From NCBI RefSeq assembly GCF_036507355.1, contig NZ_AP027877.1: a DNA stretch of 64,000 nucleotides. One strand, given 5' to 3'. Of this stretch, positions 2,842 through 52,059 are shown piece after piece. Every line of letters starts with the position of its first letter. The first letter of the stretch is position 1. Below the pieces are notes generated by a model that worked only from the letters and a program-made list of their open reading frames with translations, made no database searches and was not told the DNA's origin. Source of the DNA: Escherichia coli. GTDB taxonomy: Bacteria > Pseudomonadota > Gammaproteobacteria > Enterobacterales > Enterobacteriaceae. A program made the position numbers and the translations under genes.

Positions 2842-3027
2842 TTAACTTTGTAACGTCATAGAGTCAAAGAAAAAGGCAGCCTGTGGTTGCCTTTTGCCAA
2901 TAATTCGCACACATTGCGGGTTACTGCTTTATTTTCGTTCAGTGCTGATAACGAACATCAACCTGCAAAACGAAGCGCATAGTTTAAAATGGCTATCATC
3001 AATACGCTATATCTGATGGAAAAAAAT

Positions 3028-3612
3028 ATGCCTAAACTTATTTTAGCCTCCACCTCGCCCTGGCGTCGCGCTCTTCTGGAAAAACTGCAAATCTCTTTTG
3101 AATGTGCAGCACCCGAGGTCGACGAAACTCCACACAGCGACGAATCACCGCGACAGTTGGTGCTTCGACTGGCACAAGAAAAAGCGCAATCTCTGGCGTC
3201 ACGTTATCCGGATCATTTAATTATTGGTTCAGACCAGGTATGTGTTCTTGATGGCGAAATCACCGGTAAACCGTTAACGGAAGAAAATGCCCGTCTGCAA
3301 TTACGCAAAGCCAGCGGCAATATCGTCACCTTCTATACTGGACTGGCGTTGTTTAATTCGGCGAATGGGCATCTACAAACAGAAGTGGAGCCTTTTGACG
3401 TCCATTTCCGTCACCTGAGCGAGGCGGAGATTGATAATTACGTGCGTAAAGAGCATCCCCTGCACTGCGCGGGTAGCTTTAAGAGTGAAGGATTTGGCAT
3501 TACTCTGTTTGAGCGTTTAGAGGGGCGTGATCCTAACACGCTGGTTGGTTTACCGCTAATCGCGCTGTGTCAGATGTTACGTCGGGAAGGGAAAAACCCG
3601 CTGATGGGATAG
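3028..3612 (+). CDS. yceF: Maf-like nucleotide pyrophosphatase
   Basis: ORF track 2989..3612; start moved to the internal [20 protein letters not shown], giving 194 aa. Confidence 0.88.
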
Positions 3613-4683: not shown

Positions 4684-5255
4684 GGTTGGCGATTCTAATT
4701 AGCCAACAGGATTCGCGCCACTCATTTTTCTATGCTTATATTTACTTTTGCACCTTATTACTTCACTGCGTGATCACTTTATTGATGGTTATTAAACCAA
4801 TCACCAGCAAGAAGTGAAAAAACTGTGAGTAAGCGGGTGATAAATGGTAAAAGTCATCTTGCTATAACAAGGCTTGCAGTGGAATAATGAGGCCGTTTCC
4901 GTGTCCATCCTTGTTAAAACAAGAAATTTTACGGAATAACCCATTTTGCCCGACCGATCATCCACGCAGCAATGGCGTAAGACGTATTGATCTTTCAGGC
5001 AGTTAGCGGGCTGCGGGTTGCAGTCCTTACCGGTAGATGGAAATATTTCTGGAGAGTAATACCCAGTCTGTTTCTTTGATAATTGCGCTGTTTTTCCGCA
5101 TGAAAAACGGGCAACCGACACTCTGCGCCTCTTTGAGCTGACGATAACCGTGAGGTTGGCGACGCGACTAGACACGAGGCCATCGGTTCACACCCGGAAA
5201 GGCGTTACTTTGCCCGCAGCTTAGTCGTCAATGTAAGAATAATGAGTAAGTTACG
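4684..5255 (+). promoter_or_regulatory. rne promoter region and long 5' leader
   Basis: 570-bp non-coding gap upstream of rne; established knowledge that the rne leader is long, structured and autoregulated; promoter positions not determined here. Confidence 0.55.
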
Positions 5256-8200
5256 ATGAAAAGAATGTTAATCAACGCAACTCAGCAGGAAGAGTTGCGC
5301 GTTGCCCTTGTAGATGGGCAGCGTCTGTATGACCTGGATATCGAAAGTCCAGGGCACGAGCAGAAAAAGGCAAACATCTACAAAGGTAAAATCACCCGCA
5401 TTGAACCGAGTCTGGAAGCTGCTTTTGTTGATTACGGCGCTGAACGTCACGGTTTCCTCCCACTAAAAGAAATTGCCCGCGAATATTTCCCTGCTAACTA
5501 CAGTGCTCATGGTCGTCCCAACATTAAAGATGTGTTGCGTGAAGGTCAGGAAGTCATTGTTCAGATCGATAAAGAAGAGCGCGGCAACAAAGGCGCGGCA
5601 TTAACCACCTTTATCAGTCTGGCGGGTAGCTATCTGGTTCTGATGCCGAACAACCCGCGCGCGGGTGGCATTTCTCGCCGTATCGAAGGCGACGACCGTA
5701 CCGAATTAAAAGAAGCACTGGCAAGCCTTGAACTGCCGGAAGGCATGGGGCTTATCGTGCGCACCGCTGGCGTCGGCAAATCTGCTGAGGCGCTGCAATG
5801 GGATTTAAGCTTCCGTCTGAAACACTGGGAAGCCATCAAAAAAGCCGCTGAAAGCCGTCCGGCTCCGTTCCTGATTCATCAGGAGAGCAACGTAATCGTT
5901 CGCGCATTCCGCGATTACTTACGCCAGGACATCGGCGAAATCCTTATCGATAACCCGAAAGTGCTCGAGCTGGCACGTCAGCATATCGCTGCATTAGGTC
6001 GCCCGGATTTCAGCAGCAAAATCAAACTGTACACCGGCGAGATCCCGCTGTTCAGCCACTACCAGATCGAGTCACAGATCGAGTCCGCCTTCCAGCGTGA
6101 AGTTCGTCTGCCGTCTGGTGGTTCCATTGTTATCGACAGCACCGAAGCGTTAACGGCCATCGACATCAACTCCGCACGCGCGACCCGCGGCGGCGATATC
6201 GAAGAAACCGCGTTTAACACTAACCTCGAAGCTGCCGATGAGATTGCTCGTCAGCTGCGCCTGCGTGACCTCGGCGGCCTGATTGTTATCGACTTCATCG
6301 ACATGACGCCAGTACGCCACCAGCGTGCGGTAGAAAACCGTCTGCGTGAAGCGGTGCGTCAGGACCGTGCGCGTATTCAAATCAGCCATATTTCTCGCTT
6401 TGGCCTGCTGGAAATGTCCCGTCAGCGCCTGAGCCCATCACTGGGTGAATCCAGCCATCACGTCTGCCCGCGCTGCTCCGGTACCGGTACCGTGCGTGAC
6501 AACGAATCGCTGTCGCTCTCTATTCTGCGTCTGATCGAAGAAGAAGCGCTGAAAGAGAACACCCAGGAAGTTCACGCCATTGTTCCTGTGCCAATCGCTT
6601 CTTATCTGCTGAATGAAAAACGTTCTGCAGTGAATGCGATTGAAACTCGTCAGGACGGCGTGCGCTGTGTGATTGTGCCAAACGATCAGATGGAAACCCC
6701 GCACTACCATGTGCTGCGCGTGCGCAAAGGGGAAGAAACCCCAACCTTAAGCTACATGCTGCCGAAGCTGCATGAAGAAGCGATGGCGCTGCCGTCTGAA
6801 GAAGAGTTCGCTGAACGTAAGCGTCCGGAACAACCTGCGCTGGCTACCTTTGCCATGCCGGATGTGCCGCCAGCACCAACCCCAGCTGAACCTGCCGCGC
6901 CTGTCGTAGCCCCAGCACCTAAAGCTGCACCGGCAACACCAGCAGCTCCTGCACAACCTGGGCTGTTAAGCCGCTTCTTCGGTGCACTGAAAGCGCTGTT
7001 CAGCGGTGGTGAAGAAACCAAACCGACCGAGCAACCAGCACCGAAAGCAGAAGCGAAACCGGAACGTCAACAGGATCGTCGTAAGCCTCGTCAGAACAAC
7101 CGCCGTGACCGTAATGAGCGCCGCGATACCCGTAGTGAACGTACAGAAGGCAGCGATAATCGCGAAGAAAACCGTCGTAATCGTCGCCAGGCACAGCAGC
7201 AGACTGCCGAGACGCGTGAGAGTCGTCAGCAGGCTGAGGTAACGGAAAAAGCGCGTACCACCGACGAGCAGCAAGCGCCGCGTCGTGAACGTAGCCGCCG
7301 CCGTAATGATGATAAACGTCAGGCGCAACAAGAAGCGAAGGCGCTGAATGTTGAAGAGCAATCTGTTCAGGAAACCGAACAGGAAGAACGTGTACGTCCG
7401 GTTCAGCCGCGTCGTAAACAGCGTCAGCTCAATCAGAAAGTGCGTTACGAGCAAAGCGTAGCCGAAGAAGCGGTAGTCGCACCGGTGGTTGAAGAAACTG
7501 TCGCTGCCGAACCAATTGTTCAGGAAGCGCCAGCTCCACGCACAGAACTGGTGAAAGTCCCGCTGCCAGTCGTAGCGCAAACTGCACCAGAACAGCAAGA
7601 AGAGAACAATGCTGATAACCGTGACAACGGTGGCATGCCGCGTCGTTCTCGCCGCTCGCCTCGTCACCTGCGCGTAAGTGGTCAGCGTCGTCGTCGCTAT
7701 CGTGACGAGCGTTATCCAACCCAGTCGCCAATGCCGTTGACCGTGGCGTGCGCGTCTCCGGAACTGGCCTCTGGCAAAGTCTGGATCCGCTATCCAATTG
7801 TACGTCCGCAAGATGTACAGGTTGAAGAGCAGCGCGAACAGGAAGAAGTACATGTGCAGCCGATGGTGACTGAGGTCCCTGTCGCCGCCGCTATCGAACC
7901 GGTTGTTAGCGCGCCAGTTGTTGAAGAAGTGGCCGGTGTCGTAGAAGCCCCCGTTCAGGTTGCCGAACCGCAACCGGAAGTGGTTGAAACGACGCATCCT
8001 GAAGTGATTGCTGCCGCGGTAACTGAACAGCCGCAGGTGATTACCGAGTCTGATGTTGCCGTAGCCCAGGAAGTTGCAGAACAAGCAGAACCGGTGGTTG
8101 AACCGCAGGAAGAGACGGCAGATATTGAAGAAGTTGTCGAAACTGCTGAGGTTGTAGTTGCTGAACCTGAAGTTGTTGCTCAACCTGCCGCGCCAGTCGT

Positions 8201-26345: not shown

Positions 26346-26906
26346 ATGAACAAGTTTTTATTTGCCGCTGCATTGATCGTCAGTGGCCTGCTCGTTGGCT
26401 GTAATCAACTCACCCAATACACCATCACCGAACAAGAAATTAACCAGTCGCTTGCGAAACATAATAATTTCTCAAAAGATATCGGTTTACCCGGTGTGGC
26501 TGACGCCCATATTGTTCTGACAAACCTGACCAGCCAAATTGGTCGCGAAGAGCCGAATAAGGTTACCCTAACCGGAGACGCCAATCTGGACATGAACTCC
26601 CTGTTCGGTAGCCAGAAAGCGACCATGAAACTGAAGCTGAAAGCGCTGCCCGTGTTTGATAAAGAAAAAGGCGCGATCTTCCTGAAAGAGATGGAGGTGG
26701 TCGATGCGACGGTACAACCGGAAAAAATGCAAACGGTGATGCAAACGTTGCTTCCCTATCTGAACCAGGCATTACGCAATTACTTTAACCAGCAACCTGC
26801 TTACGTCCTGCGCGAAGATGGCAGCCAGGGCGAAGCAATGGCGAAAAAACTGGCGAAAGGCATTGAAGTGAAGCCAGGCGAAATTGTCATTCCATTTACT
26901 GATTAA
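26346..26906 (+). CDS. yceB: Lipoprotein YceB
   Basis: Internal start MNKFLFAAALIVSGLLVGC (lipobox) within ORF track 26145..26906; 186 aa. Confidence 0.88.
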   Translation: MNKFLFAAALIVSGLLVGCNQLTQYTITEQEINQSLAKHNNFSKDIGLPGVADAHIVLTNLTSQIGREEPNKVTLTGDANLDMNSLFGSQKATMKLKLKALPVFDKEKGAIFLKEMEVVDATVQPEKMQTVMQTLLPYLNQALRNYFNQQPAYVLREDGSQGEAMAKKLAKGIEVKPGEIVIPFTD

Positions 26907-26945
26907 TCACGAGGGCGCATTCGCGCCCTTTATTTTTCGTGCAAA

Positions 26946-26961
26946 GGAAAACGTTTCCGCT
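26946..26961. promoter_or_regulatory. PurR-type operator upstream of pyrC
   Basis: ggaaaacgtttccgct, palindromic core AAACGTTT matching the PurR box; about 50 nt upstream of the pyrC start. Confidence 0.55.
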
Positions 26962-27011
26962 TATCCTTTGTGTCCGGCAAAAACATCCCTTCAGCCGGAG
27001 CATAGAGATTA

Positions 27012-28058
27012 ATGACTGCACCATCCCAGGTATTAAAGATCCGCCGCCCAGACGACTGGCACCTTCACCTCCGCGATGGCGACATGTTAAAAACTGTCGT
27101 GCCGTATACCAGCGAAATTTATGGACGGGCTATCGTAATGCCCAATCTGGCTCCGCCCGTGACCACCGTTGAGGCTGCCGTGGCGTATCGCCAACGTATT
27201 CTTGACGCCGTACCTGCCGGGCACGATTTCACCCCATTGATGACCTGTTATTTAACAGATTCGCTGGATCCTAATGAGCTGGAGCGCGGATTTAACGAAG
27301 GCGTGTTCACCGCTGCAAAACTTTACCCGGCAAACGCAACCACTAACTCCAGCCACGGCGTGACGTCAATTGACGCAATCATGCCGGTACTTGAGCGCAT
27401 GGAAAAAATCGGTATGCCGCTACTGGTGCATGGTGAAGTGACACATGCAGATATCGACATTTTTGATCGTGAAGCGCGCTTTATAGAAAGCGTGATGGAA
27501 CCTCTGCGCCAGCGCCTGACTGCGCTGAAAGTCGTTTTTGAGCACATCACCACCAAAGATGCTGCCGACTATGTCCGTGACGGAAATGAACGGCTGGCTG
27601 CCACCATCACTCCGCAGCATCTGATGTTTAACCGCAACCATATGCTGGTTGGAGGCGTGCGTCCGCACCTGTATTGTCTACCCATCCTCAAACGCAATAT
27701 TCACCAACAGGCATTGCGTGAACTGGTCGCCAGCGGTTTTAATCGAGTATTCCTCGGTACGGATTCTGCGCCACATGCACGTCATCGCAAAGAGAGCAGT
27801 TGCGGCTGCGCGGGCTGCTTCAACGCCCCAACCGCGCTGGGCAGTTACGCTACCGTCTTTGAAGAGATGAATGCTCTGCAGCACTTTGAAGCATTCTGTT
27901 CTGTAAACGGCCCGCAGTTCTATGGGTTGCCGGTCAACGACACATTCATCGAACTGGTACGTGAAGAGCAACAGGTTGCTGAAAGCATCGCACTGACTGA
28001 TGACACGCTGGTGCCATTCCTCGCCGGGGAAACGGTACGCTGGTCTGTTAAACAATAA
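27012..28058 (+). CDS. pyrC: Dihydroorotase
   Basis: ORF track 348 aa, [23 protein letters not shown] metal-binding motif. Confidence 0.96.
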
Positions 28059-36106: not shown

Positions 36107-36215
36107 TGCCAGATGCGACGTGAACACCTTACCTAACCTACAAAATCTCGCAAAATCAATAAATTGCAGGAACGATGTAGGCCTGATAAGCGTAGCGCAT
36201 CAGGCAACTACGTTT

Positions 36216-45674: not shown

Positions 45675-46427
45675 GTTGTCACCCTGGACCTGGTCGTACA
45701 TTTAAGAAATTAAATCATTTCAACTTGGTTGTTAACGCAACCTGTATTTTGTTAACGCTGCGTTACGATGGAAAGTATGTCTGCGGAAATATTTTTAATA
45801 ACTCACCCGCGCGTTGTATTTTTCTTTTTTTGTTCATACCAAAGTATTAAAACCCACGTAAATACGCTGTTATCTACGCAAAAAATATTTTGTTTTCTTT
45901 TAAATCTCCGTTTTCCGCTAGCAAAAAACACCAGACAGTCATTCTTCTTGCCCGTCGCTGATTGCTGCGATATGTCTTGCGCACAAGCCGTGACAAACCT
46001 CGTCTTTTTGCAGTAAAAAATTGTCCACGGTGGTGTGGAGAAAAAACAAGAACGTTTTACATGACGAAAGGACTACACCGAAATATTTTTTATATGCATT
46101 ATTAGTAAGTTAGCACCATTTGTATGATTTTTTAAAATTGTGCAATAAAAACCAAATGTACAACTTTTCTATCATTCCTAAACTTAATAAAACCTTAAAG
46201 TTAACATTTTAATATAATGAGTTACATTTAGTTACATGTTTAACACTTGATTTAAGATTTGTAATGGCTAGATTGAAATCAGATGTAATCCATTAGTTTT
46301 ATATTTTACCCATTTAGGGCTGATTTATTACTACACACAGCAGTGCAACATCTGTCAGTACTTCTGGTGCTTCTATTTTAGAGGCAGCTGTCAGGTGTGC
46401 GATCAATAAAAAAAGCGGGGTTTCATC
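45675..46427. promoter_or_regulatory. Divergent csgB / csgD intergenic control region
   Basis: 753-bp non-coding, strongly A+T-rich gap between divergent curli operons; individual binding sites not resolved. Confidence 0.8.
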
Positions 46428-47078
<651 letters not shown>

Positions 47079-51971: not shown

Positions 51972-52059
51972 GGTGAGGTGTCCGAGTGGCTGAAGGAGCA
52001 CGCCTGGAAAGTGTGTATACGGCAACGTATCGGGGGTTCGAATCCCCCCCTCACCGCCA
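51972..52059 (+). tRNA. serX: tRNA-Ser (anticodon GGA)
   Basis: 88-nt sequence ggtgaggtgtccgagtggctgaaggagcacgcctGGAaagtgtg...ggttcgaatccccccctcaccgcca with long variable arm and T-loop GTTCGAATC, followed by a hairpin plus T-run terminator. Confidence 0.92.

Follow-up and report, generated by a model that had tools for sequence, protein, structure and literature searches.

The yceB–pyrC intergenic region of Escherichia coli: a predicted terminator, a putative PurR operator and a pyrC leader hairpin proposed to depend on the transcription start site

Which elements control pyrC, when only 105 bp separate its start codon from the gene upstream? The question was addressed in a stretch of Escherichia coli DNA of 64,000 nucleotides, which was analysed over its whole length and is referred to as the window. 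In the window, the gap extends from 26907 to 27011, directly behind the yceB stop codon (TAA, 26904–26906) and directly ahead of the pyrC ATG at 27012. The flanking genes are:

26346–26906, plus strand: coding sequence of yceB (lipoprotein), from the list of open reading frames and the RefSeq annotation of identical E. coli records
27012–28058, plus strand: coding sequence of pyrC (dihydroorotase, 348 aa), from the list of open reading frames and the RefSeq annotation

For the yceB part, the RefSeq coordinates were carried over from another E. coli record (L242) with an offset of +6399. The open reading frames near the gap are those of mdtH, grxB, yceB, pyrC, dinI, bssS and solA. A 1.1-kb query over the gap found matches in 5425 of 5426 complete E. 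coli genomes, the best being 100% identical, and both yceB and pyrC are annotated at the locus in 5425 of these 5426 genomes. Judged by its sequence, the window is core E. coli chromosome. A segment of 161 bases across the gap agrees base for base with K-12 MG1655, in reverse orientation relative to the K-12 map, and the whole 105-bp gap shows 100% identity with that strain. The subject is therefore the E. coli yceB–pyrC intergenic region, which has been under experimental study since the 1980s. Among sampled E. coli variants of a 141-bp region, changes are confined to the last part of yceB and to the bases immediately ahead of the terminator stem described below; none of these variants carries a change between the terminator T-run and the ATG. 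Two open reading frames of 42 aa which span the gap were rejected as mechanical artefacts. Features on the minus strand of the gap were considered and likewise rejected.

We have very little doubt that the gap is the pyrC regulatory region of E. coli, consisting of a terminator, a PurR operator and a hairpin which hides the Shine-Dalgarno sequence depending on the start site. The start sites themselves, the nucleotide sensitivity, the translational effect and the binding of PurR would be those described in the literature for the K-12-type region. In the following, the elements are taken in their functional context, and other readings are weighed where the evidence bears on them.

The preliminary description of the sequence had noted a GC hairpin with a T-run at the end of yceB. 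Such an element is indeed present:

26911–26937, plus strand: intrinsic-terminator-type element ending yceB, from terminator scan, fold energy and comparison of enterics

The stem begins 5 nt past the yceB stop codon and consists of 8 bp, six of them G-C pairs (GAGGGCGC at 26911–26918, GCGCCCTT at 26923–26930). It is closed by a loop of 4 nt (ATTC) and followed by TATTTTT at 26931–26937. Hairpin and T-run were picked up together by the terminator scan. The folding energy of the hairpin, −15.2 kcal/mol (z = −4.37), was not reached by any of 200 dinucleotide shuffles. It is expected to act in one direction only, because on the minus strand no T-run follows the same hairpin. In six other enteric loci the GGGCGC/GCGCCC stem and the T-run are kept while the loops differ, and one of the stem pairs is A-T in some loci and C-G in others. 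At the same position, Superficieibacter (L069) has a different hairpin without a T-run. These features of the element and their conservation in orthologous loci support a predicted Rho-independent terminator. It would stop the transcription of yceB, and pyrC would therefore be driven by a weak sigma-70 promoter of its own (GTGCAA, 17-bp spacer, TATCCT).

A rearrangement at this site occurs in E. coli 2022H048 (L246, NZ_AP029609.1). There, an IS200C copy with a frameshifted tnpA replaces the 3' end of yceB together with the terminator hairpin, at the equivalent of window position ~26911–26928. Nothing has changed from TTTATTTTTCGTGCAA up to and including the pyrC leader, and ahead of the T-run there is a hairpin formed by the end of the insertion sequence itself.

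The elements assigned to the pyrC promoter are:

26939–26944, plus strand: proposed weak −35 hexamer GTGCAA, from spacing and conservation
26962–26967, plus strand: −10 hexamer TATCCT, from its agreement with positions 1–6 of the Rfam PyrC_leader model and from conservation
26973–26976, plus strand: alternative start window T6-C7-C8-G9, base 1 being the first after the −10, from CCGG conservation and literature

The −35 hexamer matches TTGACA at three of six positions and is separated from the −10 by 17 bp. A consensus promoter scan reported no promoter in the gap, because just these three of six consensus positions are matched in the −35. In nine aligned enteric leaders, the core of the −35 (TGCA) is invariant, the −10 pattern TAT..T is conserved in all nine, and so is, as a sequence arrangement, the position of CCGG at a fixed distance from the −10. 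In the window, the bases after the −10 are T1 T2 G3 T4 G5 T6 C7 C8 G9 G10, with C7 at 26974 and G9 at 26976. Liu and Turnbough are said to have found, in 1994, the main pyrC starts 7 and 9 bases from the −10. On the assignment in the literature, C7 (26974) would be the start favoured at high CTP/GTP and G9 (26976) that favoured at low CTP/GTP. A position of the pyrC start sites downstream of the Pribnow box is also given in PMC6524683.

Can a transcript from this start window hide its own ribosome-binding site? The leader contains the following features:

26962–27011, plus strand: match to Rfam RF02372 PyrC_leader, full length, model positions 1–50
26973–26999, plus strand: leader hairpin, from the RF02372 structure line, ViennaRNA folds and conservation
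26997–27000, plus strand: Shine-Dalgarno sequence GGAG of pyrC, from conservation, spacing to the ATG and opening cost

The Rfam match, at 68.7 bits, exceeds the gathering score of 50; its E-value, calculated over the whole window, is 1e-8. It starts at the −10 (TATCCT) and ends one base ahead of the pyrC ATG, and the only structure in the model is a CCGGC/GCCGG hairpin. In the window, this hairpin consists of the 5' arm UCCGGC (26973–26978), a loop of 15 nt (26979–26993) and the 3' arm GCCGGA (26994–26999), with the GGA of the Shine-Dalgarno sequence inside the 3' arm. The preliminary description had pointed to the GCCGGA stretch, which exists at 26994–26999; it overlaps the ribosome-binding site GGAG (26997–27000), however, and does not lie before it. 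The suspected pairing of this stretch in a start-site hairpin also holds, its partner being UCCGGC at 26973–26978, which had not been named.

We folded the leader with ViennaRNA from each start between 26966 and 26981 through position +29 of the coding sequence. The opening cost was taken as the ensemble free-energy cost of holding GGAG unpaired. For the start window, it amounts to:

26973, start T6: 7.0 kcal/mol
26974, start C7: 5.4 kcal/mol
26975, start C8: 2.4 kcal/mol
26976, start G9: 0.9 kcal/mol

The hairpin alone has −9.7 kcal/mol when the start is at 26973 and −8.1 kcal/mol when it is at 26974. In the modelled transcripts from T6 or C7, a G+C hairpin of 5–6 bp covers the GG of GGAG, and the five G-C pairs of the C7 transcript have a probability of at least 0.99. 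When the transcript starts at G9 (26976), three modelled pairs are left and the Shine-Dalgarno sequence is no longer covered. Folding from alternative starts thus bears out the hairpin proposed in the preliminary description, as the ribosome-binding site is hidden at T6 and C7 (5.4–7.0 kcal/mol) and released at G9 (0.9 kcal/mol); among plausible transcripts, those from T6 and C7 do form a sequestering hairpin. The fall in the modelled opening cost as the start shifts in the 3' direction fits the published start-site switch that is sensitive to CTP and GTP. The total folding energy of the leader is not unusual in comparison with shuffles (z = −0.4 to −1.0). The significance of the hairpin derives from its position, its conservation and the Rfam match, not from raw stability. 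The 11-nt distance between GGAG and the ATG in E. coli exceeds the optimum, and closer to the ATG there is another GAG, at 27005–27007.

For pyrC and pyrD of E. coli and Salmonella, it is reported that at high CTP/GTP transcription starts at a C, a few bases past the Pribnow box; that the two extra C residues of this transcript give a stable 5' hairpin which sequesters the ribosome-binding site; and that at low CTP/GTP the start is at a G and the hairpin cannot form (PMC6524683). The likeness to known start-site-dependent control of pyrC, already noted in the preliminary description, is strengthened by the identity with K-12, the RF02372 score of 68.7 bits and the mechanism given in PMC6524683. 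In the window, RNA polymerase would accordingly be expected to start at several adjacent bases (T-C-C-G), 6 to 9 nt past the −10. When CTP is high relative to GTP, most starts would be at C7, and the 5' CCGGC could pair with GCCGG 15 nt downstream. The C7 hairpin would bury the first two G of GGAG and translation initiation would be blocked. Under pyrimidine limitation, when CTP is low, the start would be at G9; with the two C missing, only three pairs would be possible. The Shine-Dalgarno sequence of the G9 transcript would be free and pyrC would be translated.

Orthologous loci were collected by two pattern scans, which searched for the N-terminus of PyrC and made no use of the leader. The pattern of the genome scan was too general and the matches listed were mostly from non-enteric Proteobacteria; useful among them were only Citrobacter werkmanii, Escherichia albertii and Superficieibacter. 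Seven metagenome contigs, whose PyrC N-termini are 74–95% identical to that of E. coli, were found with the pattern RRPDDWH.HLRD. Ten enteric-type loci were usable in total: E. albertii, C. werkmanii, Superficieibacter electus and the seven contigs. Among the matches listed, the non-enteric gamma-proteobacteria inspected, from Shewanella, Rheinheimera, Pseudidiomarina, Alcanivorax, Halomonas and Kangiella have no such leader.

The leader of E. albertii is identical to that of E. coli. Both the −10 and the Shine-Dalgarno-bearing 3' arm are retained in eight other enteric leaders (seven of them distinct), of which seven have the full 5' arm CCGGC. The alignment of nine leaders shows no variation in GCCGGAGC or in CCGGC, whose distance from the −10 is constant; the loop between the two, 15–49 nt long, cannot be aligned. 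The loci L150 and L176 retain the −10, the CC start window and GCCGGAG, with the arm being CCGGC in L150 and CCGCC in L176. The assignment of GGAG as the Shine-Dalgarno sequence is confirmed by its distance to the ATG in other genera, which is 5–9 nt. The modelled opening cost is higher for a C7 start than for a G9 start in all 11 enteric loci. A pair count over the aligned leaders revealed five invariant core pairs and no covariation. None would be expected, because both arms are already constrained, the 5' arm by having to supply the C and G starts and the 3' arm by its role as a Shine-Dalgarno sequence; the structure therefore rests on conservation and experiment, not on compensatory change.

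At the gathering threshold, RF02372 misses seven of the enteric leaders (L216, L178, L069, L201, L222, L150 and L176). All seven have the −10 and GCCGGAG, six have the CCGGC arm, and their loops are 20–49 nt long. The Rfam model appears to cover only the short loop of the Escherichia/Citrobacter/Salmonella type.

Is the ribosome really the target of the hairpin? A paired 5' end can shield an mRNA from 5'-end-dependent decay, and the leader structure might thus act mainly on the fate of the transcript, as an attenuator or through mRNA stability, and not by blocking ribosomes. The longer pyrC transcript does differ in degradation rate as well, but this effect on stability is described as a consequence of reduced translation (PMC6524683). 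No U-run follows the leader stem (GCCGGAGCAUAGAG), nor does the terminator scan report anything there, and the 3' arm of the hairpin overlaps the conserved GGAG. A main action on transcript fate is thus very improbable in our view. An attenuator in the leader was rejected, as the U-run after the stem is missing; a leader peptide was rejected too, there being none in the E. coli leader.

Besides the switch that would hide the Shine-Dalgarno sequence from the ribosome, the gap contains a candidate site for a repressor:

26945–26960, unstranded: putative PurR operator (pur box) AGGAAAACGTTTCCGC, from matrix scan, conservation and literature

The site was scored with a PurR log-odds matrix made from the 28 ChIP-chip sites of Cho et al. 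2011 (PMC3159470), a list from which pyrC is absent. It reaches 15.8 bits, as against 11.7 to 25.7 bits for the training sites, and falls into the lower quarter of the known PurR sites. Among 127,970 positions (both strands of the 64-kb window) it has rank 1, at a chance of ~2e-6 per position. The PurR-like palindrome of the preliminary description is therefore real and, with its 15.8 bits, passes the matrix scan as the best site in 64 kb, but its register was one base off, the proper coordinates being 26945–26960. AGGAAAACGTTTCCGC is an imperfect palindrome of 16 bp, perfect in the AAAC/GTTT core but not in the flanks, and has a C at position 13, where 27 of the 28 PurR sites have G.

The box takes up 16 of the 17 spacer positions between the −35 (26939–26944) and the −10 (26962–26967), and bound PurR would therefore exclude RNA polymerase. 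It is located one base upstream of the −10, a place which it also has in eight of nine aligned enteric leaders, and its core is invariant across the nine. In the two most distant loci it is degenerate (L150, 4.7 bits) or absent (L176, −3.4 bits). Matrix match and promoter overlap support 26945–26960 as a putative PurR operator. PurR with hypoxanthine or guanine would compete with RNA polymerase there and cause a modest, few-fold repression by purines.

In PMC3159470 and PMC6245113, pyrC is given as directly repressed by PurR, with Choi & Zalkin 1990 and Wilson & Turnbough 1990 being cited. Could this repression be the main control, with the hairpin and the start-site motif being incidental? 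The box is the best site in the window, fills the promoter spacer and is kept in eight of nine aligned leaders, all of which would be in line with such a role. However, the effect of PurR on pyrC is small, far below that on the pur genes and similar to the 3–4-fold effect at carAB P1 (PMC6245113), and the pyrC site went undetected in the ChIP-chip study, the only one of PurR on a genome-wide scale, as its authors state (PMC3159470). Further, L150 and L176, in which the PurR box is degenerate or absent, still have the −10, the start window and GCCGGAG. A leading role of PurR is hence highly unlikely. A weak operator would fit both the small repression and the missing ChIP-chip signal, as we infer.

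A reading of all three motifs as coincidental resemblances in an unremarkable spacer between genes is effectively refuted: the unexceptional folding energy of the leader, the lack of covariation and the negative promoter scan are what such a reading would have in its favour, but against it stand the Rfam E-value of 1e-8, the chance of ~2e-6 per position for the PurR matrix, the z of −4.37 for the terminator, the conservation of the elements across genera while the loop changes freely, and the identity of the region with that of K-12, on which experiments have been done.

Two 16-bp matches to the PurR matrix, directly abutting each other, were also noticed on the minus strand at 47037–47068. 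They score 13.4 and 14.4 bits (ranks 5 and 2) and lie within the final 36 nt of the coding sequence of csgD. This pair is probably due to chance.

With the pyrC regulatory region as the preferred reading, how does the leader compare with known systems? It is the same element as the pyrC leader of K-12 and Salmonella (RF02372): the −10, the CCGG start window, the hairpin and the sequestered Shine-Dalgarno sequence all agree, and from the K-12 leader there is not a single sequence difference. For experiments on the pyrC leader, PMC6524683 cites Wilson et al. 1992, Sorensen et al. 1993 and Liu & Turnbough 1994. The RF02372 consensus differs from E. coli at a few positions in the loop and the discriminator, and has a shorter distance between the Shine-Dalgarno sequence and the AUG, where E. 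coli has about 4 extra nt (AGAG). On sequence grounds, the leader in the window is the type example of the PyrC leader, already known and ordinary.

The pyrD leader of E. coli and Salmonella is a close relative in function, although it belongs to a different gene and locus outside the window. The same CTP/GTP start switch and a hairpin sequestering the Shine-Dalgarno sequence are reported for it (PMC6524683), and it also has a PurR box (PMC3159470). The pyrD box CGGAAAACGTTTGCGT is nearer to the consensus, with 22.5 bits in contrast to 15.8 for pyrC, and of the two boxes it alone was detected by ChIP-chip (PMC3159470). Operators of PurR, a member of the LacI/GalR family, are likewise imperfect palindromes of 16 bp with a central CG, matching ACGNAAACGTTTGCNT, and mostly overlap the promoter, as does the pyrC box (PMC3159470). 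Compared with the operators of the pur regulon, the pyrC box has C at position 13, where G is near-invariant, and at position 16 C replaces T. In pyrBI and other UTP-sensitive leaders, pyrimidines are similarly sensed by RNA polymerase and no dedicated repressor is used (PMC6524683). Systems of the pyrBI type, however, depend on stuttering at T-runs or on an attenuator coupled to the translation of a leader peptide, whereas the pyrC leader lacks a T-run at its start as well as a leader peptide and an attenuator, and its output would be translational.

The pyrC region is a textbook example of gene regulation that needs no dedicated pyrimidine repressor: the CTP/GTP ratio is sensed by RNA polymerase through the choice of start site, and a 5' difference of two nucleotides decides whether the ribosome-binding site is hidden. 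Biologically, the leader in the window offers nothing new. Its value is that of a positive control for the reading of raw sequence: a real, experimentally established element was recovered with only small register errors.

One small item is not obviously covered by the literature consulted for pyrC. In E. coli specifically, 26966–26972 (CUUUGUG) is complementary to 27001–27007 (CAUAGAG), the extra pairing being created by the 4-nt AGAG insertion. In modelled transcripts that begin upstream of the −10, the hairpin is lengthened to 13 pairs; a construct from 26966 has about −21 kcal/mol overall and requires ~9.4 kcal/mol for the opening of GGAG. The extension to 13 pairs is not conserved in Citrobacter and may be fortuitous. 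It is conceivable, if rather doubtful, that the leader also insulates pyrC against translation from transcripts which read through from yceB or from an upstream insertion sequence, and that the AGAG insertion is a lineage-specific adaptation and not neutral drift. If this were true, the output of pyrC would depend only on its own nucleotide-sensing promoter.

Some further observations were made on other loci and elsewhere in the window. In the enteric metagenome loci L216, L178 and L201, the enlarged hairpin loop contains ATGACTGA, which nearly repeats the pyrC start ATGACTG. The mini-ORF that arises from it is in the pyrC frame in L216, has four codons followed by TGA TAA in L178, and in L201 ends by overlapping the pyrC start in ATGA; no Shine-Dalgarno sequence was found ahead of any of the three. 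These mini-ORFs could be a duplication remnant or a lineage-specific leader feature. In L048, a metagenome-assembled genome labelled Klebsiella pneumoniae, the general pattern of the genome scan matches a different dihydroorotase-like gene at 6715–6743 on the minus strand. As its upstream region is G+C-rich and has no leader of the pyrC type, this gene is a paralogue or stems from a mis-binned contig. Further matches in the window above the Rfam gathering threshold are the rne 5' UTR element (4895–5231, plus strand), the SraB sRNA (2866–3034, minus strand), the ES056 sRNA (46281–46372, plus strand), the ES036 (CssrF) sRNA (36142–36184, plus strand) and a tRNA (51972–52056, plus strand), all of them as one would expect of this chromosomal region in E. 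coli.
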